Source of the DNA: Escherichia coli | GTDB taxonomy: Bacteria; Pseudomonadota; Gammaproteobacteria; Enterobacterales; Enterobacteriaceae | Reading direction: 5' to 3' (one strand) | Length of the DNA stretch: 64,000 nt | Assembly: GCF_011045215.1 (NCBI RefSeq) | Contig: NZ_CP049201.1 | Part shown: in pieces, positions 17,528-30,084 of the stretch | How the letters are laid out: each line of letters opens with the position of its first letter | Numbering within the stretch: position 1 is the first letter of the stretch | Made by a program: the position numbers and the translations under genes | The notes under the pieces: generated by a model | Databases searched by the model: none | What the model was told of the DNA's origin: nothing | The model's input: only the letters and a program-made list of their open reading frames with translations

Positions 17528-17603
<76 letters not shown>

Positions 17604-17656
17604 GTTTAAAAGGCATCGGCGTCAGCGGATGTCTGGCTGAAAGGCCTGAAGAATTT

Positions 17657-17730
17657 GGCGCGTTAACAAAGCGGTTATGTAGCGGATTGCAAATCCGTCT
17701 AGTCCGGTTCGACTCCGGAACGCGCCTCCA
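17657..17730 (+). tRNA. cysT: tRNA-Cys (anticodon GCA)
   Basis: GGCGCGTTAACAAAGCGGTTATGTAGCGGATTGCAAATCCGTCTAGTCCGGTTCGACTCCGGAACGCGCCTCCA. Confidence 0.95.
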
Positions 17731-17742
17731 CTTTCTTCCCGA

Positions 17743-17829
17743 GCCCGGATGGTGGAATCGGTAGACACAAGGGATTTAAAATCCCTCGGCGTTCGCGCTG
17801 TGCGGGTTCAAGTCCCGCTCCGGGTACCA
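17743..17829 (+). tRNA. leuZ: tRNA-Leu (anticodon TAA)
   Basis: GCCCGGATGGTGGAATCGGTAGACACAAGGGATTTAAAATCCC...GGGTTCAAGTCCCGCTCCGGGTACCA; long variable arm typical of tRNA-Leu; its 3' 55 nt are duplicated at 39473. Confidence 0.95.
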
Positions 17830-17898: not shown

Positions 17899-18370
17899 AT
17901 TTGTATTTTGAGCAATGGCGGTAGAGTGGCGGTGGTGTGGCGATATGCAGAAACAACAATGGTAGTGCACGTGCTGTTTAAGCTCTAAGGATGAAGCAGA
18001 ATTCTCCTGCAGCTCCTCCGTATTTCGCATAGTGAACCAAGACTTCGGTTAAACAAAATTTTTCTGGGATTTTTCCACTCGACTTCATTTTTCCTCCAGT
18101 CATCCACCAAAGGTACCTGCGCTAATCTATCTTTTTTAATCTGACAACATCCTGAGAAAAGGCAAATTCGTCAGATTTACTGTTTTTTCTACTGCTTCGA
18201 ATGCCGATGTCTGCAGTACTGATAAGAGCTCTATCTCTTTGATATAGATCTTTTATTTGATGAATTGCTCGACATATTATCGTTATGACACCTTCTTGTT
18301 AAAGGTGTTGTACTCCACATCTCGATTTTATGATGTGGGTTATGATTGGTTAGTAATAGAGTGTATCGGT

Positions 18371-18652
18371 ATGCGATGTGGTTTATTAATGGCAATCTGC
18401 TTTTGTTTGGTATCTTTTAGTGGGTATGCAGCAACAGGAAAGTCTGATGTTCAGATCAAGAAAGAAATAATTAAAGAATCCATTGAATCATATCCAGGCA
18501 ATTGTGCGTGTCCTTATAATCATGCAAGGAATGGTAGTAGGTGTGGTGGACGCAGTGCATATAGCCGTACTGGAGGGTATGATGTGGTATGTTATGAGAG
18601 TGATGTTACTGATGAAATGATCCGGCAATGGAAGCAGGAGAATGCTGATTAA
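18371..18652 (+). CDS. small Cys-rich secreted protein of unknown function (prophage cargo)
   Basis: ORF 18257..18652; probable start MRCGLLMAICFCLVSFSGYA (signal peptide) followed by GNCACPYNHARNGSRCGGRSAYSRTGGYDVVCYESD; AT-rich; followed by hairpin terminator 18729..18761. Confidence 0.5.
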   Translation: MRCGLLMAICFCLVSFSGYAATGKSDVQIKKEIIKESIESYPGNCACPYNHARNGSRCGGRSAYSRTGGYDVVCYESDVTDEMIRQWKQENAD

Positions 18653-18843: not shown

Positions 18844-18984
18844 TTACTGCTTACACTGTAAGAACGCCGCAAACTCCGCTCCCCAGAAGCTCATCCGTAT
18901 TTCACACAGCGAACCGTGCAGCATCCAGATGATGAGGATTACCGTCACGCAGAACGTGATGGCCGTAAGCGATTTTTGCGACAT
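18844..18984 (-). CDS. Hok/Gef-family type I toxin (46 aa)
   Basis: Manual translation MSQKSLTAITFCVTVILIIWMLHGSLCEIRMSFWGAEFAAFLQCKQ: single TM helix followed by SLCEIR and ...AAF motif as in Hok/Gef; AGGAG-like SD upstream; too short for the ORF track. Confidence 0.7.
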   Translation of the reverse strand: MSQKSLTAITFCVTVILIIWMLHGSLCEIRMSFWGAEFAAFLQCKQ

Positions 18985-19174: not shown

Positions 19175-19435
19175 TTAATTCTGAGGTAAAGGCAAACTCA
19201 TCTGATTGTTTCCCCTGTGTGACGTTGGCAGTTCATGCCACGGGATACCTTCTGAAGATCGAACGCCTGAGGTGTGTTTCGATGTGAATTTATGGAAAGC
19301 TTCCAGTGTTGAGAAGCATACGCCGCATTCCAGGTTGTTACACTGGTAATACTTTTGTCGGACGGTGTTTGAATCATTTTCCGGACGACTTGTGCGGATA
19401 CGGGCAGATGCGCCACAAAGCGGACAACGGAACAT
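19175..19435 (-). CDS. ogr: Ogr/Delta-family zinc-finger late-gene transcription activator
   Basis: MFRCPLCGASARIRTSRPENDSNTVRQKYYQCNNLECGVCF: CPLC...CxxxxC pattern and layout as in P2 Ogr (MFHCPLCQHAAHARTSR...YHQCQNVNCSATF). Confidence 0.8.
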   Translation of the reverse strand: MFRCPLCGASARIRTSRPENDSNTVRQKYYQCNNLECGVCFSTLEAFHKFTSKHTSGVRSSEGIPWHELPTSHRGNNQMSLPLPQN

Positions 19436-19678
19436 AGCAACCTCCCTTTAGGTGGTGCTATTCTAAATTTCATCAATGCAGATTCCAACTCCTTCCCACT
19501 TTAAGCGAAGGATGGTGATAAAGTCAGAAGATGTTAGATGAAATCTAAACGGGCGATAAGTTTTCCAATATTTGAATAACAACGTGGCAGGATTTTTGTT
19601 TATCAATTATCTTACACTTTTAAGTGTAATAAATTTGTTAGTGATGACAATATTGTGAGAGGAGATTATCAATTGAAG

Positions 19679-21077
19679 ATGGCAAAAAATAACAATGATA
19701 AAATGCGGGCAAAGTATAGGCCGTTCATAAATATATGGGAACATCTTCCTTCTGAGTTCAATGAACTCATCAAGACGTTAATGGTGCTGATACGGCAAGG
19801 GGAAAATGTGGGAGCTCAGCAAAGGGAGCTTGATTCCATCGAAAACTTCAAACACCTGTTAAGTGGATGGAAGCGGGCGCAAAGGATCATAGCTGATGAA
19901 CTCATTATCAGGCTTTCTCAAATCAAGGATCTGGAGTTAGAAAAGAATTGTGCCCATTCAAAAAAGGACTATGAAACAAAGAAGAAGTGTATACGCAATA
20001 TTGAAAGGACTAGACTAGAAATTAGGATTTTACGTAGGTGCATTGATTCAATTGTATGGGCGATATTCCGCAATGAACACTCGTCTATAAGACGTTTACC
20101 TATAAATAGAAATACTGACAATCTGACAATATTTAATATACATGATTCAATGGTGGTAGCAGATGAAATCAATGCTGATCCGATGGCTATAGCTGTTATC
20201 ACTGATATTACTACGTTTGTACATACTGGTGATTTACTTGCGTTAATACCTCAGCAAGGCATAACTTTAATTGAAATAAAAAGTGGTAAGAAAAATATAG
20301 AGTTTTCAAAGGCGGCTATGTTCTCAGTGCAAAGTAAATGTCTTCATTTTGATGAGATTTATAGAAAAGACCTTGATAAAAATGACTTGAAACACTATGA
20401 CAGAGCTAAGCGTCAACTTAAAAGAGCTCAAAATGTGATAGATGTCATTGAGACTGGTAAGGGATTTGATAACTTTTTTCAGTCTCAAGTAACAATTCAT
20501 GACAGAGATTTTTGTCCCGATTTTTATACAGATAAGATTATTGAGCTTTGGTATGAGATATATAACGGTAAAACTTGGGCGATTACTGACATTAATGATT
20601 GTTTATTCCTTGGGGCATATATTAATTCTAATATGGGTTTTTGCGGTTTTAATGGATGGATGGAGGTATCTAGAATATCGGGGAGAGTGGTTTAATATTC
20701 TTGATAGCTTTTCAGATGCTTTATCACGTCCATTTTTTAGTTTGAACCTACCTGATAAATTGCTTCTGGATATCATTAATGGCAATCTAATTGTTGTGCT
20801 GTGTTTCGATCATCGTCGTTTCGTAGAAAGAGCAAATAAAAAATACCCCGGGATTTATGAGTTATTGGATTTTCCATCTCCGAAGATTAATCCTATGAGT
20901 ATGCTTTCCATCAATGGGAAGGGGGTAGTTTCTAGTGTTGATGGACAGAGTGTTTTTATTGGAAATGGTTACGAAACTCGGATTATTTTTGATCAGCAAT
21001 ATCCAGATAGTCTGATTAAGTGGTCATACCATATGAGTGATCTCAAAAAAATATTGATAAAAAAAAGCGTAAAATGA
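19679..21077 (+). pseudogene. ~470-aa cargo protein with PD-(D/E)xK-like nuclease motif, interrupted by a frameshift near 20660-20690
   Basis: ORFs 19655..20695 and 20499..21077 overlap in different frames; protein-like sequence continues across frames around the direct repeat ggatggatgg; motif HTGDLLALIPQQGITLIEIKSGK (D ... E-x-K); AT-rich; upstream palindrome ttacacttt/taagtgtaa (19612..19629). Confidence 0.5.
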
Positions 21078-21272
21078 AAAAGGAAACGCAAAGAAAAATA
21101 AAAGAGAAAAGAAAACGTAGCAGAAAACAATGCTTAAACTAACACATCTAATGCTTTAATTTGCTTTACTGTTACAATGTCCGCTTACTGGTACAGGGCG
21201 GACTGCCATATTAGATTTGGTTCTATCTCGTAAGAGTGGCCGTTCAGGTCTGCACTAATACATCTGAATGGT

Positions 21273-22382
21273 TCACTCTGTTTCTGCTATCCATTCCGGG
21301 ATTTTTGCTTCAAGCTCAAGCTGCGTGGTAAAGCCGCTGTTATCAATGGTGTGCTCGGCTTTTGCAATAATCCAGTCCTGATTATCAATCTCGCTTTTAA
21401 ATCCTGTTACCGTGCCATGCATTTCGGGGTAGAGTTCTGCGCGTCCGCGTGCCAGTGTGATGGAGAATGATGCGGCTCCGCGTTGTAGTTGTTGCCACTT
21501 TGCCGCCGCTGCGCGTCTTGCTGCCTGCTCGTTCTGATAAGTCTTGCGTAACACAAACACATTGCCTTCCGCGCCTTCCATATAATCACCTTCACGGCTG
21601 CTGCTTTTCTCTTTTTTCGGTTTTGGCGGTTTGCGGCGTTTCACGCTGACTTTTTTCTTTTTCCCGTAATTAAGATCAAGCCAGTAAGCGCGTACCCCCG
21701 TATACGCCTCGCGGTCAGCAATGCGGAACTGATGGCGATCGCCGCTGCTGCGTGTGATGGCGAACGAGGGCAACGGCTGGCCCTGTGCGTTCACGCCACC
21801 GCCGGGCATGATGAATAACAGATTACCGCTTTTTACCGTGGTGATTGCGCCCAGCATTTCCGCCATGCGCGTAAGGAAGGACATGTCACTTTCTTCGGTC
21901 TGGTCGGCGTGGTCGATTTCGATATCCATCAGCATTTCGCTGATTTGCGGTTTCAGACCGTACCGATGAGCGATGGCGGATACCACACGCTCAACGGTCA
22001 CATCATGCCAGGACATCTCACGTTTAACGTTAAATTCATCCCGAAAATCTGCGCTTCTGGCTGAAACAGTCAGCCTGTCCGGCGGTCCTTCGTGTGCGAT
22101 TTCATCAACAATGTAAGAGCCTTTTTCTGTCAGCGGTTCGCCTTTCCAGCCAATGAGAACCGTCAGGCGCGCGCCCCGTGGCGGTAGCCGCAACTGACCA
22201 TCCGCATCATCCAGCGTGATGGTGAGCTGGTCTGCCTCAAATCCCCGGTTGTCGGTCAGCGACAGGCTCATCAGGCGCTCTGCCACGCCGGACAGCGTTT
22301 TACCCTCCGCGAGAATATCAAAATCCGGCATTTTTACGGGGTCTGTGCCCTGACTGAGCAATTGCATGGTGGTGTCGGTCAT
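21273..22382 (-). CDS. P2 gpD-like tail protein (late control gene D)
   Basis: ORF 21273..22514; probable start MTDTTMQLLSQGTDPV...; P2 D-family by recollection and by position next to the tail-gene block. Confidence 0.8.
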   Translation of the reverse strand: MTDTTMQLLSQGTDPVKMPDFDILAEGKTLSGVAERLMSLSLTDNRGFEADQLTITLDDADGQLRLPPRGARLTVLIGWKGEPLTEKGSYIVDEIAHEGPPDRLTVSARSADFRDEFNVKREMSWHDVTVERVVSAIAHRYGLKPQISEMLMDIEIDHADQTEESDMSFLTRMAEMLGAITTVKSGNLLFIMPGGGVNAQGQPLPSFAITRSSGDRHQFRIADREAYTGVRAYWLDLNYGKKKKVSVKRRKPPKPKKEKSSSREGDYMEGAEGNVFVLRKTYQNEQAARRAAAAKWQQLQRGAASFSITLARGRAELYPEMHGTVTGFKSEIDNQDWIIAKAEHTIDNSGFTTQLELEAKIPEWIAETE

Positions 22383-22539
22383 CTGTTCCCTCCCTGTGCG
22401 GCATGGTCGCATGTGCGTGCGGAGGGGGTTACTGCTTTTTGTTGTCGCCGGGTCGGGAGAACGGCGCAGGGGTGAGATTACGCGCGTGGTGGGTGATGAT
22501 TGTTGCCGAATCATTTAACGGATACAAGGGGCTGAAGCT

Positions 22540-23724
22540 ATGAGTGAAACTCGTTTTCATGGTGCCCGTGTTACGGAAAATACCGACCTGGTAACAGCGA
22601 TTAACGATGTTGATTCCAGCGTTATCGGTATCGTGGCAACGGCGGATGATGCGGACGCGAAGCTGTTCCCGCTGAACAAGCCCACACTGCTGACCCGCGT
22701 CAATGACGTGCTGGGAAAATGCGGGACAACGGGGACGCTTTATCGTGCGCTTAAGGCCATCGCAGACCAGGTGAGCACAAAGGTGATCGTCGTTCGCGTG
22801 GCTGAACACAAAGAAGAAGACGGAAAAACGCAGGATCAACTGGTTATCGGTGGTTCTGAATCTGACGGCAGCTATACGGGGATGTATGCGCTGCTTGTTG
22901 CAGAGCAGGATGAAAGCATCGGATACCGTCCGCGTATTCTGGCCGCGCCGGAGCTGGACACGGAGGCGGTAACAAAATCCCTGTGCGTGATTGCGGGTAA
23001 ACTGCGCGCGTTTGTGTATGCCTCATGTCACGGCTGTAACACGATGGCTGAGGCGATTACCTACCGCCAGAAATTCAACGAACGTGAGGTGATGCTCTTA
23101 TGGCCGGACTTCATCGCCTACAACCCGAAAAGTGGCAAAAACGAAACGTTCCCCGCGCCTGCCTATGCGTGCGGCCTTCGTGCGTACATTGACCATGAGC
23201 AGGGATGGCACAAATCACTGTCCAACGTTCCGGTTAAAAATGTGCTGGGGATGTCGAGGCATGTGTTCTGGTCGTTGCAGGCCGAAGACAGCGATGCCAA
23301 CAGCCTCAACAACAAAGAAATCACGACCATTATTCGTCGCAACGGGTTCCGCTTCTGGGGCAACCGCACACCGGAAACGAACGCCTACATCTTTGAGGTG
23401 TATACCCGAACCGCACAGGTGCTGGCTGATTCAATTGCGGAAGCGCAGTTTGAAACCATCGACAGTCCATTAACACCCGCGAACGTGAAGGATGTTATCA
23501 GTGCCATCAGGGCAAAACTGGATTCGCTGGTTACTGCCGGGAAACTGATAGGCGCGGAGTGCTGGTATGACGTGGTGGATAACAGCACCACGGATTTACG
23601 TCAGGGACGTGTGCGTATTCGCTACAAATATACGCCCGTTCCGCCACTGGAAGACATGGAGCTTTACCAGACGTTTACTGATGAATACTTTGAACCCGCA
23701 TTTGCGGTGCTGGGAGGTGCCTGA
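22540..23724 (+). CDS. contractile tail sheath protein (P2 FI-like)
   Basis: 394 aa; shares FPLNKP, KLRAF, WPDF, EQGWHKSLSNV, GFRFWGNRT, YTRTAQV, YTPVPPLE with P2 FI as recalled. Confidence 0.9.
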   Translation: MSETRFHGARVTENTDLVTAINDVDSSVIGIVATADDADAKLFPLNKPTLLTRVNDVLGKCGTTGTLYRALKAIADQVSTKVIVVRVAEHKEEDGKTQDQLVIGGSESDGSYTGMYALLVAEQDESIGYRPRILAAPELDTEAVTKSLCVIAGKLRAFVYASCHGCNTMAEAITYRQKFNEREVMLLWPDFIAYNPKSGKNETFPAPAYACGLRAYIDHEQGWHKSLSNVPVKNVLGMSRHVFWSLQAEDSDANSLNNKEITTIIRRNGFRFWGNRTPETNAYIFEVYTRTAQVLADSIAEAQFETIDSPLTPANVKDVISAIRAKLDSLVTAGKLIGAECWYDVVDNSTTDLRQGRVRIRYKYTPVPPLEDMELYQTFTDEYFEPAFAVLGGA

Positions 23725-24236
23725 TGGCTGTGCCAAAACATCTTCGCTTTTTTACGCTGTTTGTGGATGGTGAAAACGAAGTGGGTAAGGTGACGTCCGT
23801 CACTCTGCCTAAGCTGACGCGCAAAACCGACAGCTACCGGGGTGGCGGCATGATGGGTGCGGTAAGTATTGATCTCGGTCTGGACGACTCCGCGCTTGAT
23901 GCGAGCTTTGTCATGGGGGGCGCAGTTCGTGAGCTGTTCCTTAAGTATGGCGGCACGATTGACGGCACGCTGCTGCGTTTTGCGGGTGAATACTACACCG
24001 ATGCAGAAAGCGACCTGTATGAAGTCGAAATGCGCGGACGTGTGACGGAAATTGATATGGGGGAAGCCAAACAGGGCGAAGCCACATCACACACTTACGC
24101 CATTAAAAACACCTACTACAAGCTGAGTGTTAACGATCGCCCGTTGTGGGAGATTGACCTGCTGAACTTCATTTACCGGAAGGACGGCAAGGACATTGTG
24201 CCCGATCGCATCCGTTCCGCGCTTGGGCTTGGCTGA
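23724..24236 (+). CDS. tail tube protein (P2 FII-like)
   Basis: 170 aa; SVTLPKLTRK...YRGGGM...LGLDD pattern as in P2 FII; directly follows FI. Confidence 0.85.
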   Translation: MAVPKHLRFFTLFVDGENEVGKVTSVTLPKLTRKTDSYRGGGMMGAVSIDLGLDDSALDASFVMGGAVRELFLKYGGTIDGTLLRFAGEYYTDAESDLYEVEMRGRVTEIDMGEAKQGEATSHTYAIKNTYYKLSVNDRPLWEIDLLNFIYRKDGKDIVPDRIRSALGLG

Positions 24237-24290
24237 TAAGTAATATGCAGGCGGCGCAGTGCGTCGCCTCTGACTGAAAGGAGTTTCCTG

Positions 24291-24656
24291 ATGAAAGAGA
24301 CGAAAAACATCGATACCGAAAACACGGTAGTTACTGACACTGTGAAAGAAACCAGTGAGCGTGGCGTAAAACTTACCCAACCAATTGAGCGAGGCGGCGA
24401 AAAAATCACGTATGTGGAGATCACCGGGGCTATTGAGCAGGCTGGATCTCTGCGAGATTTGTCGCTGTCTGATGTGCTGAATCTGAAAGCGGAATCCATG
24501 TTTACGCTGCTGTCACGCGTGACATCACCGCGACTGGATGAAGTGACGATCAAAAAAATGGCATCCCGTGACTTTATTCAGTTATGTGTGGTTGCCGTAA
24601 ATTTTTTGAGCGGTGCGGACTCTGGCGGGAAGAACGAACAGGCGACGGAAGCCTGA
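24291..24656 (+). CDS. tail assembly chaperone (P2 gpE-like)
   Basis: 121-aa ORF between tube and tape-measure genes; contains the slippery site for E' frameshifting. Confidence 0.75.
   Translation: MKETKNIDTENTVVTDTVKETSERGVKLTQPIERGGEKITYVEITGAIEQAGSLRDLSLSDVLNLKAESMFTLLSRVTSPRLDEVTIKKMASRDFIQLCVVAVNFLSGADSGGKNEQATEA
24602..24608 (+). other. predicted -1 programmed ribosomal frameshift site (TTTTTTG) producing E+E' fusion
   Basis: T6G heptamer inside gpE-like ORF; the -1 frame (ORF 24584..24820) extends to the start of the tape-measure gene, as in P2 E/E'. Confidence 0.6.
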
Positions 24657-24770
24657 TCACGGTTGTGTGCTTTGAGCACATAGAAGACTTTGTGGCGGAT
24701 ATTGCCGCCATTTTTAACTGGTCGCCCGCCGAAATCTTCATGATGACGCCCGGCGAAGTGGTTAGCTGGC

Positions 24771-27614
24771 GTGAGCGGGCGGCACTTCGCAGCGGGAATG
24801 CAGACAATGAAGACTCTTGATATCCGGGTCGCTTTCAGCGCCGTTGACAGGCTGACCCGGCCTGCCGAAAACGCCCGCCGCCTGATGGGGCAGTTTGGTG
24901 ACTCCATCCAGCGAACGCAGGGGGCGATCAAAAATCTCGAGCGTCAGGCGCGTTCATTTGAGCGCGCCCGTGACGCTGTCAGTAAAGCGGATGCTGGCAT
25001 ATTGAAAGCACGACGCCAGCTTAACGCCCTTAATCAGTTACAACGCACGGGTACAGTGCTCAGCGAAAAACAACAAAAGCTGATGCAGCAGTTAAGCACC
25101 CGGCTTGAACGCCTGAATGAATCGCGCACACGTGAAATTCAGAAAATGCGGGAGCTTGGCGGAGAGCTGAAACGCCACGGCATTTCCCTGACAGGCAGCG
25201 ATAACACCATCCAGCAGGCCATCAGACGCACCGAACAGTACAACAACCAGCTTGAACGCGAACGGCAGGCGCTTGCGCGTGTAACGCGGGCGCGTGAGCG
25301 GTATTCGCGCGCGCAGGAAACCGCGGGAAAACTGAAAACAGGTGGTGCGCTGGCAATTGGTGCGGCAGCGGCTGGCGGCTATGCTGCCGGGCGTTTTTTG
25401 CAGCCTGCGATCGGGTTCGGCAAAGAGATGTCCCGCGTTCAGGCACTGACGCGAATCGACAAAAACAGCCCGCAGTTTAAGGCGCTGCGTGAGCAGGCGT
25501 TAAAACTTGGCTCTGAAACACAGTTTACTGCGAGTGATGCCGCCAGTGGGCAGAGCTTTCTGGCAATGGCTGGTTTTACTCCGCAGTCCATTCAGGCCGC
25601 ATTGCCCGGTGTTCTTAATATGGCGCTGGCAGGTGGCGTCGAACTCGGCGAGACGGCTGATATAGGCTCCAATATCCTCACACAGTTCAACCTGACAGCC
25701 GATCAAATGGGCCGTGTTGGCGATACGCTGACAGCAGCATTCACCCGGACCAATACTGATTTACGCGCGCTGGGCGAAACCATGAAGTATACCGGTCCGG
25801 TTGCCGCAAAACTTGGTATCAGTCTTGAAGAAGCGGCAGCCATGGCCGGGATGCTTGCCAATAATGGTCTTCGTGGAAGCGATGCTGGTACGGCCATTCG
25901 CGCAAGTCTGTCCCGCCTTGCATCACCGCCAAAAGCTGCGGCTGATGCGCTGAAAGAGCTGGGGGTGTCAGTTGCTGACGCCAGAGGCAAAATGCGCCCG
26001 ATGGAGGATGTGCAGCTTGATCTCTACAAGGCGACACAAAAATACGCACAGGTGGACCAGGTTTCCTTCTTCAAGGACATCGCCGGAGAAGAGGCGTTCG
26101 TTGGTTTGCAGACGCTTGTTGCGGCGTCTGGTTCAGGAGAGCTGCAAAAACTGACCAGAGAATTGCAGGGGGCAAGGGGAGAGGCCGATCGCGTTGCAAA
26201 AGTAATGGCCGATAATCTTGATGGGGACCTGAAAAATCTCGACAGCGCATGGGAAGGTCTTCGTATTCGCATCAGTGATCTGGTTGACGGTCCGCTGCGT
26301 TCTGTCACGCAGTGGCTCACGCGGGGGCTTGAAAAAATCACCTCGCTGGCGCAGGCCCATCCGGTACTGACGCGCCAGCTACTGATAGCAGGCGGTGCGT
26401 TGCTGGCAATGACTGTAACGATTGGCTCGTTGTCGCTGGTTATTGGGGGGCTTTACGGGAAGCTGGCTACCTTGCGTCTTGGTTTTGACATTCTTACCCG
26501 GTCAATGAATGTCGTCAGGGTGTTGCCTGCGCTGTGGGGAATGGTGACGGGTTCCGTTTCTTTACTGGGAGGCGCTATCGGGGCGCTGTTCAGTCCGGTT
26601 GGTCTTATCGTGGCTGCGCTTGCCGGAGCTGCCGTTCTTATCTGGAAATACTGGGATCCCATCAGGGCATTTTTTGCAGGGGTGTTCAGCGGGATTATGG
26701 AAAGGCTGACCCCGTTGCGCGAAACCTTTGAACGGTTTGGTCCTGTTTTTGACGCAATCGGAAGCGGGATCAGCCAGGTGTTTAACTGGTTTAAATTGCT
26801 GCTGTCACCGATGGAGTCCAGCAAGGAAACGCTGGATAAATGCACCAGTGCTGGCGAGGTATTCGGTAACGTTCTTGGTGGCGCGTTACAGCTTGTTCTG
26901 ACGCCTGCAAAAATGCTGCTGGATACGCTGGCGTGGATACTTGAAAAACTCGGTGTGCTTCCGGATGAGGCGGAAAGGGCGCGTAAGAAAATCGAAGACG
27001 CACAGCGTGCGGCCATTCTTCAGGACAAGGTTGCCTTGCTTCAGGGGGATCTGGCGAAAATCAATCCGCCGAAGCCTGTGGAAAATGGCAATGGCACCGG
27101 AGGTGATAAACCCAAAGACAACAAACCGCTCACAGACAGCAATACCGGGACGCTACGCAGACTCAGCAAAATTGCTGATAACACAGGTAAGCTGGTTGAT
27201 GAGACGAAAAAACGCATTGGCCCCGGCGATATTGTCTTTAAGAACCTGCCCCGCGCACTTGCTGTTCGTGGGGAGTGGCAGGAGCGGAAGATTGCGCAGG
27301 TCAGTAAGCCTGCCCCCGCAATTAATATCACACCTGTGGTCCCGGCTCCGCTGCCTCCGACGCTGGTCCCTGTTGTTGCGGCCAGCTCCCGCCCGGTGGC
27401 GGAGTCCATACGATCTCCAGTGGCATCAGTTCCTGCAACTTCCCGTAACCGGGAGCCTGTTGCCTCCGGATTTGGCGGTGAAATTCATGTTCATCTGCAT
27501 AACGTTGTTACGCAGAATCCCCGCGAACTGGCGAAACTGGTCGGCGAAATGGTCAGTGCAGAAATGGAACGGCGCGCCCGTGCCAGGCGTGGCAGTTTTT
27601 ACGATAAAGATTGA
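24771..27614 (+). CDS. tail tape-measure protein (P2 gpT-like)
   Basis: 947-aa ORF, coiled-coil N-terminus, Gly/Ala-rich hydrophobic central segments; position after E/E'. Confidence 0.9.
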   Translation: MSGRHFAAGMQTMKTLDIRVAFSAVDRLTRPAENARRLMGQFGDSIQRTQGAIKNLERQARSFERARDAVSKADAGILKARRQLNALNQLQRTGTVLSEKQQKLMQQLSTRLERLNESRTREIQKMRELGGELKRHGISLTGSDNTIQQAIRRTEQYNNQLERERQALARVTRARERYSRAQETAGKLKTGGALAIGAAAAGGYAAGRFLQPAIGFGKEMSRVQALTRIDKNSPQFKALREQALKLGSETQFTASDAASGQSFLAMAGFTPQSIQAALPGVLNMALAGGVELGETADIGSNILTQFNLTADQMGRVGDTLTAAFTRTNTDLRALGETMKYTGPVAAKLGISLEEAAAMAGMLANNGLRGSDAGTAIRASLSRLASPPKAAADALKELGVSVADARGKMRPMEDVQLDLYKATQKYAQVDQVSFFKDIAGEEAFVGLQTLVAASGSGELQKLTRELQGARGEADRVAKVMADNLDGDLKNLDSAWEGLRIRISDLVDGPLRSVTQWLTRGLEKITSLAQAHPVLTRQLLIAGGALLAMTVTIGSLSLVIGGLYGKLATLRLGFDILTRSMNVVRVLPALWGMVTGSVSLLGGAIGALFSPVGLIVAALAGAAVLIWKYWDPIRAFFAGVFSGIMERLTPLRETFERFGPVFDAIGSGISQVFNWFKLLLSPMESSKETLDKCTSAGEVFGNVLGGALQLVLTPAKMLLDTLAWILEKLGVLPDEAERARKKIEDAQRAAILQDKVALLQGDLAKINPPKPVENGNGTGGDKPKDNKPLTDSNTGTLRRLSKIADNTGKLVDETKKRIGPGDIVFKNLPRALAVRGEWQERKIAQVSKPAPAINITPVVPAPLPPTLVPVVAASSRPVAESIRSPVASVPATSRNREPVASGFGGEIHVHLHNVVTQNPRELAKLVGEMVSAEMERRARARRGSFYDKD

Positions 27615-27620
27615 GGAGTC

Positions 27621-28115
27621 ATGGCCATGATGATGATCTATGGCATGTTTGTTTTTGAGCTGCGCACACTGCCACATCAGCAGTTACAGCAAAACAAAAG
27701 CTGGCGGCATGTGAAAAATGAACGCGTTAACCGTTCAGCAAGCTGGCAGTATATCGGTGCAGGTGATGATCGCATCGTTCTTTCCGGCGTGCTTTATCCT
27801 GAAATTACAGGTGGTGAAGTGTCGCTGTCGCTGCTGACCACGCAGGCATATACAGGGCGGCCCTGGCCTCTGATTGATGGTGTCGGGCAGATTTACGGCA
27901 TGTATGTCCTGACCGGAACGAATACGACCCGCTCCGAGTTTGATCGCTACGGTAAGGCGAAAAAAATAGAATTTTCACTGACCCTTGAACGCTGTGATGA
28001 GGATTTGCGGGAGCGCCTGCAATCCTCATCGTTCAGCGATATGCTGTCCGGCTTCAAAGATAAGGTGACATCATCCCTTAACAGCGCGGCCAGTTCAGTT
28101 AAAGGACTGTTCTGA
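27621..28115 (+). CDS. tail protein (P2 gpU-like)
   Basis: 164-aa ORF directly after tape-measure gene; MMIYGMFVFELRTLPHQQLQ... P2 U-like. Confidence 0.8.
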   Translation: MAMMMIYGMFVFELRTLPHQQLQQNKSWRHVKNERVNRSASWQYIGAGDDRIVLSGVLYPEITGGEVSLSLLTTQAYTGRPWPLIDGVGQIYGMYVLTGTNTTRSEFDRYGKAKKIEFSLTLERCDEDLRERLQSSSFSDMLSGFKDKVTSSLNSAASSVKGLF

Positions 28116-28211
28116 TTTTACATTGCCGCCGATACCCTCATATTGGGTAATGGGCGGCTTGTTGTTATATAATATATCGTAGGTCCTGATAAAACTGTTG
28201 AGGTTTCTACT

Positions 28212-29450
28212 TTATAAAGAATTGCTACTTTCTAATTCTGGGTTTCTGGATCTATTTTTACAACCTAAATCCGAGTGGTAATTCGGTATATCGTTTGTCA
28301 AATCTTGTTTGATAGCATTAATTAAGATCATTATGTCGAATTTATGCATATCGTCGCCCCCTTCAGACCTTAGATGTTCGGATGTGGTGAGTTGAGTCGC
28401 TAATTTGCTGTTTGGCCCCCACACAATATTGTTTTCGAATTTTCCTTCATGCATTCTGTTATTATATATACAGTATTGTCTAATGTTTAATCCACTGGCT
28501 AAATGTACAATAGCAGTATCTACAGTTATAACAAAATCAGCATGGCGAACCAATGCAAATGAACATCCGGCATCAGAAAATGGAGATAGAGACACATTAT
28601 CCAATCCATTGTGATTAATCTGTTCTCCCATATTAAAAACTATTGTGTGATATCCCTTAAGGTTATTAAGGTAAGCTAGTACTTTGTTTATCTGTTCATC
28701 AGATAATGTTCTGCTATTCTGAGAACCATAAGGGTTAAATATAACTAATTTTTTGTTTTTCTTCCTGAATTCATTTGCAACAATATTTGCTGGTTCATAT
28801 ATTTTGTTGTCAAAATTAAGCGCTGCAGCATAATTATTATTTTTTATCTTTAGTAAAGATAAAACTTTTTTCATTCTTTCAGATGTGTGAATGGAACGAT
28901 TATCGATTATATTTGTATCAAAAATAGTTACGGCAGGATGATTAAAACAGATAGAGTGTTTAGGTCTAAGTAAATGTAGTGTTTGCAATCTGGTTATCGC
29001 TGTGTTATCAAAATTTGAGAAGTCAACAACAAGATCTACATTCAGTTTTTTTATCTTTGCTTTTAGTTCGTTAAATTTATTTTTCTCGTAAGATATAAAG
29101 GCATCCACGCCAACAATATCAGTAAAGAGGAATGATACTCTTGAAGGTGCTATCACATATACCACCATACCGGATTTTTGAAGTTGTTTAATAAACCCTG
29201 AGGTAACGATGCCGTCACCAATGGCTTGCATGTGCATGAAAATGCACACTGTTTTATAACTATCCGGCTGTAATGATGTTTTCCTTCTGTATCGCATTTT
29301 TAGAAATGCCAGTCTGGCCTTCGTCTTTATCTTTTTTGTTTTAATATTTCGCTCTCTGTTAAGCTGTTTTAATGATGAAATAACATTCATAATGGTACCC
29401 TGAAAATCCAAATCACACATGTCATCCGAAATGAGCAGGATACTATACAA
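28212..29450 (-). CDS. glycosyltransferase family 9 (LPS heptosyltransferase-like) cargo gene
   Basis: 412-aa ORF, very AT-rich; N-terminal ...MQAIGDGIVTSGFIKQL and C-terminal ...FVITVDTAIVHLASGLN resemble the GT9 motifs of WaaC/WaaF-type enzymes; start may be internal. Confidence 0.6.
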   Translation of the reverse strand: MYSILLISDDMCDLDFQGTIMNVISSLKQLNRERNIKTKKIKTKARLAFLKMRYRRKTSLQPDSYKTVCIFMHMQAIGDGIVTSGFIKQLQKSGMVVYVIAPSRVSFLFTDIVGVDAFISYEKNKFNELKAKIKKLNVDLVVDFSNFDNTAITRLQTLHLLRPKHSICFNHPAVTIFDTNIIDNRSIHTSERMKKVLSLLKIKNNNYAAALNFDNKIYEPANIVANEFRKKNKKLVIFNPYGSQNSRTLSDEQINKVLAYLNNLKGYHTIVFNMGEQINHNGLDNVSLSPFSDAGCSFALVRHADFVITVDTAIVHLASGLNIRQYCIYNNRMHEGKFENNIVWGPNSKLATQLTTSEHLRSEGGDDMHKFDIMILINAIKQDLTNDIPNYHSDLGCKNRSRNPELESSNSL

Positions 29451-29484
29451 AAAACTGGACTACAATGGTTTGAAATGAAAGCCT

Positions 29485-30084
29485 TTATGCTTGTTTACTC
29501 CTTGATTCCACTGGGGAAGCAGGCCACTCAATATCCGGTGCTCTTGATGTATCAACACGGTTCAGCAGCACTCGATACTTCTTCCATGCCACCAGTAACG
29601 ATGTTTCTTCCTCTGTTGCAATATTCAAATCTACGGCATCTTGAAGTGGCGAAATATGCTCACTGGCTACCTGCATGAGGCTGTTTTTTGTTTCTTCCGC
29701 CTCCCGTATCCGGAACACTTTTTCTGCTTCTGCATCTTTCACCCACGTTGTGCCGTTCCACTTCTGAAACTCCCCTTCCGGGGATAACCAGGTGACATTT
29801 TCCGGTAATGGACCGAGTTCAGAAATAAATAACGCGCCCCCTGATGCCACGTCATAAACCGTTTTACCACGATGATCTTCAACGAGATGCCAGGACGTCT
29901 TATCACTGTTGAAAATAGCCACGAAGCCAGCTGGAATATCTGGCGGAGAAATATCAGTACTATTTGCAGGTAGACCTGTATGAGGTGGAATGTATGCATC
30001 ACCTTCACCAATAAATTCATTGGTTCCGACCAGCAGATTATAAATTTTTATGGTTCGTGGTTGTTCACTCATTCTGAATGCCAT
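29485..30084 (-). CDS. tail fibre assembly chaperone (Tfa / P2 G-like)
   Basis: 199-aa ORF immediately downstream of the tail-fibre fragment; Tfa-like C-terminus (...[22 protein letters not shown]). Confidence 0.8.

Follow-up and report, generated by a model that had tools for sequence, protein, structure and literature searches.

The archaeal Holliday-junction resolvases Hjc and Hje (PF01870; PDB 1hh1 and 1ob8) have a minimal PD-(D/E)xK fold, and Hjc is a dimeric enzyme of approximately 140 amino acids (aa) in archaeal recombination. Shedu (SduA, DUF4263/SduA_C) is a single-gene anti-phage PD-(D/E)xK nuclease with variable non-catalytic domains and is carried on mobile elements. The exclusion and hotspot cargo genes of P2 phages, which include old, tin, and fun/Z and the systems of PMC9122126 and PMC9519451, are AT-rich, independently oriented, and situated between conserved P2 genes. 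Furthermore, AbiH, PD-T4-5 (AbiD-like), and PDC-S19 (DUF3644) are single-gene abortive-infection or candidate defence genes. The gene described here occupies positions 19,679 to 21,077 of a 64,000-nucleotide (nt) stretch of the Escherichia coli genome (NCBI RefSeq assembly GCF_011045215.1, contig NZ_CP049201.1), hereafter referred to as the window, and lies between the ogr and D genes of a P2-like prophage. We somewhat favour the reading that this region is a pseudogenised single-gene accessory cargo (“moron”) of a defective P2-like prophage, of which the intact form would be a candidate defence nuclease. The gene would be a nuclease-type candidate defence gene borne by a mobile genetic element (MGE), of a family so far undescribed (not in PADLOC v2).

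The ogr–D interval spans approximately 1.84 kb and contains two overlapping open reading frames (ORFs) on the + strand, at 19655..20695 and 20499..21077. The original prediction, made from the letters of the window, that the two are one gene split by a 1-nt frameshift was confirmed by the uninterrupted coding sequences (CDSs) at the same site in strains A17 and WP7-S18-ESBL-09 (99.6% nucleotide identity to the window). Intact CDSs at this site are 1464 nt (487 aa, WP_038820202.1) and 1398 nt (465 aa, WP_001107526.1) in length and are annotated as hypothetical; A17 has the 487-aa allele (NZ_CP028757.1, 2891638–2893101) and WP7-S18-ESBL-09 the 465-aa allele. The 5′ ORF of the broken gene (19679..20695, + strand; product WP_241040781.1) codes for residues 1–337 (the helical hairpin of the N-terminus and the predicted nuclease core), then V338 and a premature TAA at 20693–20695. 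The RefSeq start is ATG 19679, and an alternative TTG (19673), 8 nt past a GGAG sequence (19661–19664), would fit the N-terminal length of the orthologues. The premature stop results from an insertion, G to GG, at 20689–20690 of the + strand (GAGTGGTTT vs. GAGTGTTT), where every intact allele has a single G. The 3′ part of the gene follows in the +1 frame (20691..21077, + strand), codes for residues 338 to approximately 455 of the C-terminal α/β domain, including the near-invariant P351 and G430 and the invariant P442, and has a possible internal ATG at 20652. A second lesion is present downstream of the premature stop in the first of two + strand poly-A tracts (21045..21051), which is A7 in the window and A8 in 11/11 other alleles. 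This A7 is a later or private change and was seen in the window only, so that an artefact is possible for it. The second tract (21059..21066) is A8 in the window and A6, A7, or A8 among E. coli alleles, and the number of A residues in it determines if the protein carries the Lys/Arg-rich tail (487 aa) or ends without it (465 aa). The remnant coding sequence of this basic tail, KKRKMKKETQRKIKEKRKRSRKQCLN with its stop, is located at 21078..21143 on the + strand, out of frame in the window, and is conserved in the orthologues of other genera. In silico repair of both lesions yields a 487-aa protein 100% identical to WP_038820202.1, and the repaired CDS differs from that of WP_038820202.1 at three nucleotides, all synonymous. 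The window copy is a pseudogene of a single cargo gene.

The frameshift had been placed near the direct repeat GGATGGATGG; the 1-nt shift is real, and its site is different, the G duplication lying approximately 24 nt downstream. Slippage at GGATGGATGG (approximately 20653–20662) was ruled out, as the repeat is identical in 12/12 alleles examined. Accordingly, of the description “inactivated or slippage-variable”, inactivation stands, and slippage at the frameshift does not, since no slippage-prone tract is present there. The only length-variable tracts are the two poly-A runs near the 3′ end, which alter only the C-terminal basic tail. The G duplication places the stop after residue 338, and the second 1-nt deletion would have arisen since then in the downstream poly-A tract. 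The 338-aa product is most likely inactive because the C-terminal domain (P351, G430, P442) is lost, although the predicted active site is kept. The C-terminal KKxxxKKxKxxRKRSRK tail is kept in most enterobacterial and pseudomonad members of the family, and because of this conservation in other genera the 487-aa form is regarded as ancestral and the E. coli 465-aa form as a derivative by poly-A slippage.

Intact homologues, proposed as a check on the locus, were found in 16 complete E. coli genomes, and the family extends to other genera. Close relatives (60–75% identity, mostly 485 aa; 33 clusters at 90% identity) are present in Serratia, Dickeya, Yersinia, Raoultella, Morganella, and Aeromonas, and relatives at 33–46% identity are found in Enterobacter and Pseudomonas. 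A HMMER scan of 1.84 billion representatives detected 472 clusters (50% identity) at E ≤ 1e-3, nearly all of 440–490 aa. Foldseek against AFDB50 gave 161 structural matches, spanning Proteobacteria, Bacteroidota, Firmicutes, Myxococcota, and the candidate phyla radiation (CPR). Among the 50 matches listed, 49 are named “Uncharacterized protein” and one “HEPN domain-containing protein”, and this structural check for known relatives thus returned uncharacterised proteins, the one HEPN label aside. A HEPN identity was ruled out, as the Rx4-6H motif is not conserved in the alignment.

The description of the protein as unassigned to a family was borne out by four profile libraries. Pfam gave no match to the intact protein at E ≤ 10 and none among 69 diverse members at E ≤ 1e-3, and the core alone was likewise negative or at noise level; SduA_C reached E 0.03 in 1/69 members. 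NCBIfam and PHROGs did not assign the intact protein. The best values over these libraries, for the ExoVII small subunit (E 0.084), phrog_10256 (E 0.028), and SduA_C (E 0.03), are noise. PADLOC-DB v2.0.0 gave zero families at E ≤ 10 for the intact protein, and with 10 distant members it gave only two PDC-M36B matches (E 0.08 and 0.47), both in one member. Sequence and profile searches of the PDB with three alignments returned only coiled-coil or noise matches. Shedu/DUF4263, NERD, and Mrr had been named as candidate families, and none gave a significant match, in what is a weak test. Membership in Shedu failed in these searches, with no PADLOC match for the protein or the 10 distant members and a single Pfam SduA_C value of noise level; as an analogy, Shedu best illustrates how the cargo protein might work.

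The original prediction further proposed a D-x13-E-x-K motif of the restriction-endonuclease type, and this motif, HTGD(185)…E(199)-I-K(201), is present with its triad invariant in 69 homologues. Judging from the family alignment, it is the most conserved feature of the family. Across 69/69 sequences, down to approximately 20% identity, D176, D185, E199, K201, G203, R242, Q246, and P442 are invariant, and N206 is conserved in 68/69. In the window, the invariant acidic and lysine codons fall within 20204..20281 on the + strand (D176, 20204–20206; D185, 20231–20233; E199, 20273–20275; K201, 20279–20281), and those of R242 and Q246, on the long helix after the core, within 20402..20416 on the same strand. 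The arrangement that defines the PD-(D/E)xK motif, an acidic residue and an acidic-x-Lys at a spacing of 10–20 residues, is thus found in all 69 members, and profile comparison gave no significant match to any established PD-(D/E)xK family in Pfam or among PDB profiles. AlphaFold2 (AF2) models reached a pLDDT of 86.7 for the full length and of 88.2 for residues 146–455, with a helix at 151–165, a strand at 171–174, a hairpin at 186–190/194–198, and a helix at 204–219. In the β-hairpin, D185 stands at the beginning of one strand and E199 immediately after the partner strand; from this placement the two residues are considered to oppose one another on the hairpin, in the manner of PD-(D/E)xK active sites. 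The intact protein probably has a PD-(D/E)xK-type catalytic core, as far as the models indicate, and the rest of the fold is without a solved structural relative.

The predicted catalytic hairpin appears closest to that of Hjc/Hje. The Hjc sequence was confirmed against 1hh1_A, an Hjc profile was built, and hhalign was run; the top local alignment places D185/E199/K201 on D42/E55/K57 of Hjc (P 0.014, probability 3.1%). The cargo protein differs from the approximately 140-aa Hjc in its length of 487 aa, which includes the helical hairpin, a large helical insertion after β3, an extra C-terminal domain, and the basic tail. Furthermore, the first catalytic glutamate of Hjc, on helix 1, is without a conserved counterpart in the cargo protein family, and the invariant D176 in the β1–β2 loop may replace it.

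The genomic context of the family points strongly to defence. Like the P2 exclusion and hotspot genes, the cargo gene is AT-rich, independently oriented, and located between conserved P2 genes, and it has no sequence relationship to them (PADLOC negative). All 14 IMG/VR loci from the close-family alignment are P2-like prophages, and a wider scan extended the set to 30 viral loci, in which gene positions were placed by mapping P2 proteins onto them (individual loci are denoted by L numbers). In P2-like prophages, the family gene is always alone, and it occupies at least six different junctions: ogr–D in E. coli; just after ogr (L026); U–H (L027 and Raoultella L014); V–S (L028, L029, L034, L035, L044, L045, and Enterobacter L017); directly after int (L030–L033 and L043), with ogr and D on the other side where the contig extends (L031); and, at 29% identity, next to portal/terminase (L047). 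The hotspot sites used by the family are V–S, U–H, the int side, and the portal-proximal site, together with D–ogr in the window. The D-to-C interval and the other occupied sites have been described as P2 variability or defence hotspots (PMC9122126; 10.64898/2026.02.27.708500; 10.1101/2024.10.15.618418). The ogr–D junction is not among the two classical P2 hotspots, and the D–ogr interval falls inside a third hotspot, “tail protein to CI” (10.1101/2024.10.15.618418). The gene also has the attributes of P2 moron or hotspot cargo, i.e., sporadic occurrence (20/5426 complete E. coli genomes), varied junctions, and atypical GC content.

Outside P2-like prophages, the gene is directly downstream of a different defence gene, on the same strand, in three independent replicons. 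The copy on an Enterobacter IncFIB plasmid follows AbiH, as does the gene in the L037 group; the copy on a Pantoea conjugative plasmid follows a PD-T4-5/AbiD-like gene; and that of a Dickeya integrative island follows PDC-S19/DUF3644, with Fic and PDDEXK_4 genes nearby. These neighbours are not homologous to the cargo protein, and the relation is one of adjacency only, which may reflect a shared defence hotspot or possibly co-transcription. A subgroup at 48% identity in a lambdoid-type element adjoins a Ren-like exclusion gene; Pseudomonas copies occupy islands beside ComM/Mg-chelatase-like genes that are intact (L005) or truncated (L007, L008); and the integrase island of a Myxococcota copy also contains Mrr_cat and an S8-peptidase/AAA pair. 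A siphovirus copy is situated between tail genes and the tape-measure gene. A copy at 26% identity (L052, 9001–10365) is in a Firmicutes-type conjugative element near a CAP12-type TIR gene. It lies inside the transfer region, between the genes for a TraG-like ATPase and an NlpC/P60 hydrolase, and the start of the hydrolase gene overlaps its stop; this setting differs from the phage hotspots. In total, 30 prophage contigs of IMG/VR and 13 plasmid records contain family members, in contrast to 0/50,697 sequenced phage isolates. This distribution is as expected of exchangeable defence cargo and provides the main, inferential argument for function.

For the intact 487-aa protein, four parts are predicted: a long helical hairpin at the N-terminus, then a minimal PD-(D/E)xK core, next a family-specific α/β domain, and last a C-terminal helix rich in Lys and Arg, with D185 and E199-x-K201, plus the invariant D176, R242, and Q246, as putative metal-dependent core residues. 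Its most likely role would be anti-phage or anti-MGE defence (superinfection exclusion), in which the protein, expressed from the lysogen, would cut invading or replicating foreign nucleic acid at its PD-(D/E)xK centre; alternatively, it might act by abortive infection, with host nucleic acid as the target. Sensing and oligomerisation could fall to the helical hairpin and the C-terminal domain, and additional, non-specific affinity for nucleic acid could come from the basic tail. Taken together, the observations tentatively suggest a phylum-spanning, single-protein defence family that occupies at least six P2 hotspots, is found beside Abi-type genes on plasmids and islands, and has a tail that in E. 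coli is switched by poly-A length. An architecture of hairpin, minimal PD-(D/E)xK core, C-terminal domain without a solved relative, and poly-Lys tail is proposed with the same reserve. If the gene does encode a defence nuclease, it would represent a new single-gene anti-phage family with an architecture of its own, of which the 472 clusters have no domain annotation, and hardly any variable junction of a P2-like genome, ogr–D included, would be closed to a single cargo gene. Ready-made isogenic controls are at hand because WP_038820202.1, WP_001107526.1, and the natural frameshift null WP_241040781.1 differ by single nucleotides. The window copy itself is of small biological consequence, being an ordinary pseudogene in a defective prophage, and the cargo gene is one of many unannotated hotspot genes and a cheaply testable lead.

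An alternative, which we consider unlikely, is that the family takes part in defence or MGE conflict without being a nuclease. The conserved D/D/E/K/R/Q residues would then bind a ligand or partner, as in a sensor or NTP-binding protein, and the effector function would be exerted otherwise or by a neighbour, e.g., the upstream Abi-type gene. The absence of nuclease profile matches and the weak fold evidence agree with this explanation, as does the HEPN label of one AFDB relative, and the three contexts with a different Abi-type gene upstream, at a gap of 16–90 nt, would fit a partner or adaptor. However, the gene is solitary in all P2-like contexts, the three upstream genes are unrelated single-gene systems, and no Rx4-6H HEPN motif is conserved. 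Moreover, in its D-x13-E-x-K spacing, its position on the hairpin, and its register with Hjc, the motif corresponds exactly to that of PD-(D/E)xK enzymes.

An equally improbable alternative is a gene that benefits the phage in a capacity other than defence, such as a repair, recombination, or replication helper, or a lysogenic-conversion or anti-defence factor. Carriage by temperate phages, phage-plasmid-like replicons, and conjugative elements would be in keeping with such a role, and so would the copy of an integrative and conjugative element (ICE) inside a transfer operon and the siphovirus copy among structural genes. By contrast, the position of the gene varies in otherwise syntenic P2-like genomes, its occurrence is sporadic, it adjoins known defence genes, and it is absent from all the sequenced phage isolates searched. 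Still less probable is a free-standing, homing-endonuclease-like selfish gene, which would spread by cutting phage genomes that lack it and being copied into them. This would account for the many insertion sites between conserved phage genes, and a nuclease-type motif in a lone, usually opposite-strand gene between P2 genes at six or more sites is in line with it. Against it, Pfam and PHROGs give no match to LAGLIDADG, GIY-YIG, HNH, His-Cys, EDxHD, or I-Ssp6803I-type PD-(D/E)xK endonucleases; 450–490 aa with large non-catalytic domains would be unusually big; the family also has members next to defence genes on plasmids, in ICEs, and in non-phage islands; and the P2 sites used coincide with accessory or defence hotspots from the literature, where many unrelated cargos are found.

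Several observations weigh against a pseudogenised defence nuclease. Neither a nuclease nor a defence family was recognised in the protein by Pfam, NCBIfam, PHROGs, or PADLOC, the hhalign comparison with the Hjc profile is non-significant at a probability of only approximately 3%, and hhalign against the single Hjc sequence gave no match. No homologue was detected in the 50,697 phage isolates by nucleotide search or by tblastn at E ≤ 1e-5, no + strand sigma-70 site upstream of the cargo gene passed the promoter scan, and a literature search by protein accession found no paper and no experiment on any family member. Furthermore, the gene has been truncated repeatedly in E. coli (products of 338, 340, and 181 aa; IS1; the tail-less 465-aa form), a pattern equally compatible with a costly defence gene and with relaxed selection acting on a dead prophage.

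Among complete E. coli genomes, the ogr–D interval was detected by megablast in 20/5426; it is full length in 16 of these 20, at 99.4–99.6% nucleotide identity and always at the same chromosomal site. The truncated WP_241040781.1 is indexed in 35 collection blocks, and 24/24 blocks read gave a contig carrying it; these 24 contigs, from separate NCBI assemblies and SRA runs, are a lower bound. Since the exact 338-aa product is present on at least 24 independent E. coli contigs, the frameshift is regarded as a real allele, fixed in one E. coli lineage, and a sequencing artefact as the source of the inserted G was ruled out by the same observation. Five sister loci (L009–L013) have the GG allele with A8/A8 and an intact downstream frame. 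This lineage is nearly clonal at the locus (10 differences over 4.5 kb, all within D and FI), and the intact downstream frame of the sister loci is therefore uninformative with respect to constraint. The tail-less 465-aa form is the commonest E. coli allele (80 contigs), poly-A variation is probably also behind 479-aa products, and other damaged alleles on record code for the 340-aa and 181-aa products. IS1 truncates the gene in 3/20 complete genomes, leaving only the first 869–968 nt of the region. In L003 (NZ_CM132249.1), IS1A cuts the gene at approximately codon 235 and is followed by a partial “restriction endonuclease” fragment and then by yecA, an arrangement that suggests an IS1-mediated deletion of the remaining prophage.

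It is highly improbable that the gene is functional in the window strain through an assembly error, a prfB-like +1 bypass at GTT-TAA, or a split protein starting at ATG 20652: the GGGGAG-AGTG-GTT-TAA context, with its Shine-Dalgarno (SD)-like GGGGAG 4 nt upstream, is reminiscent of prfB, the in-frame ATG lies 41 nt before the stop, and the downstream frame is still intact in the five sister loci, but the recurrence of the GG allele excludes an assembly error, the near-clonality of the lineage deprives that frame of information, and the window already has a second lesion. In addition, the protein is one polypeptide in every other family member, tRNA-Val re-pairs poorly when shifted from GUU to UUU, and the distance to the SD-like sequence is not that of prfB.

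Relative to ogr and D, the cargo gene is on the opposite strand; a spacer of 243 nt precedes it, and its Shine-Dalgarno sequence is GGAG. A palindrome, TTACACTT-TT-AAGTGTAA (19612..19629), lies 50–67 nt upstream of the ATG. It had been noted as a feature of the promoter region; its existence was confirmed, and it gives no indication of a function, since it is not conserved upstream of 16 homologues. Inverted repeats of at least 8 bp occur in 2/17 such upstream regions, and the palindrome is therefore not beyond chance; a role as an operator was ruled out on the same lack of conservation. At the other end of the gene, a GTCCGC/GCGGAC hairpin (21179–21203; 6-bp stem, 13-nt loop) lies where the cargo gene and D converge, between their stop codons; having no T-run, it was not called by the terminator scan.

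The left boundary of the cargo insertion is the ogr/Delta-like zinc-finger late activator gene (ogr; 19175–19435, − strand), and the right boundary is the P2 gpD-like late control/tail protein gene (D; 21273–22514, − strand), which is convergent with the cargo gene. Two further statements of the original prediction hold: in the canonically ordered P2-like prophage L026, D is directly adjacent to ogr, and the cargo between them in the window is an AT-rich, + strand gene with − strand neighbours. The GC content is 0.33–0.38 over 19400–21400 vs. 0.49–0.56 in both flanks, which marks the ogr–D segment as foreign cargo. The prophage is integrated beside the glyW-cysT-leuZ tRNA genes of E. coli; uvrC, pgsA, and the tRNA-Gly/Cys/Leu cluster (tRNAs at 17528–17829) precede it in the window. 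The element (approximately 18000–39400) is defective: it retains ogr and the genes for the tail and fibres, together with a partition protein, a repressor-like gene, and, adjoining yecA, an integrase, no capsid, portal, or terminase gene is present in it, and the gpA nickase is truncated, a 517-aa ORF matching only its C-terminal part (phrog_6857, positions 357–855).

The tail genes FI, FII, E, T, and U (22540–28115) are on the + strand, divergent from D on the − strand, whereas L026 has the canonical collinear order FI…U-D-ogr. The divergent arrangement was also observed at L014–L016 and L022–L025, including Raoultella prophages, and because these have the same order, it is regarded as a lineage feature and not as damage at the window locus. 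The D protein is annotated with 369 aa in sister assemblies, and the window and sister drafts have an ORF of 369–413 aa. In strains A17 and WP7-S18-ESBL-09 (L001/L002, 4833–5687), the annotation of gpD consists of an 801-nt CDS and a pseudo-fragment; therefore, by annotation, D is broken in some strains with an intact cargo gene.

Between the tRNA-Leu gene and ogr, a Hok/Gef-family toxin gene is present at 18844–18984 (− strand), and a degenerate hok-like remnant with a …GSLCEIR… motif and similar flanking DNA follows directly after tRNA-Leu (approximately 17985–18110, − strand). In the same gap between the tRNA cluster and hok, in a patch of 38–42% GC, an ORF of 131 aa (18257–18652, + strand) has a hydrophobic N-terminus and a Cys-rich C-terminal half; its matches are phrog_27544 (unknown function) and, at a weak level, a moron PHROG named “membrane associated protein”. 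A second AT-rich island (28000–29500, 31–40% GC) separates gpU from the tail-fibre assembly gene; at this U–H junction, Raoultella and IMG/VR P2-like prophages have a homologue of the cargo gene. Its 412-aa ORF (28212..29450, − strand) has no PADLOC match and a single match elsewhere, phrog_36326 (unknown function), and may be another unclassified hotspot cargo.

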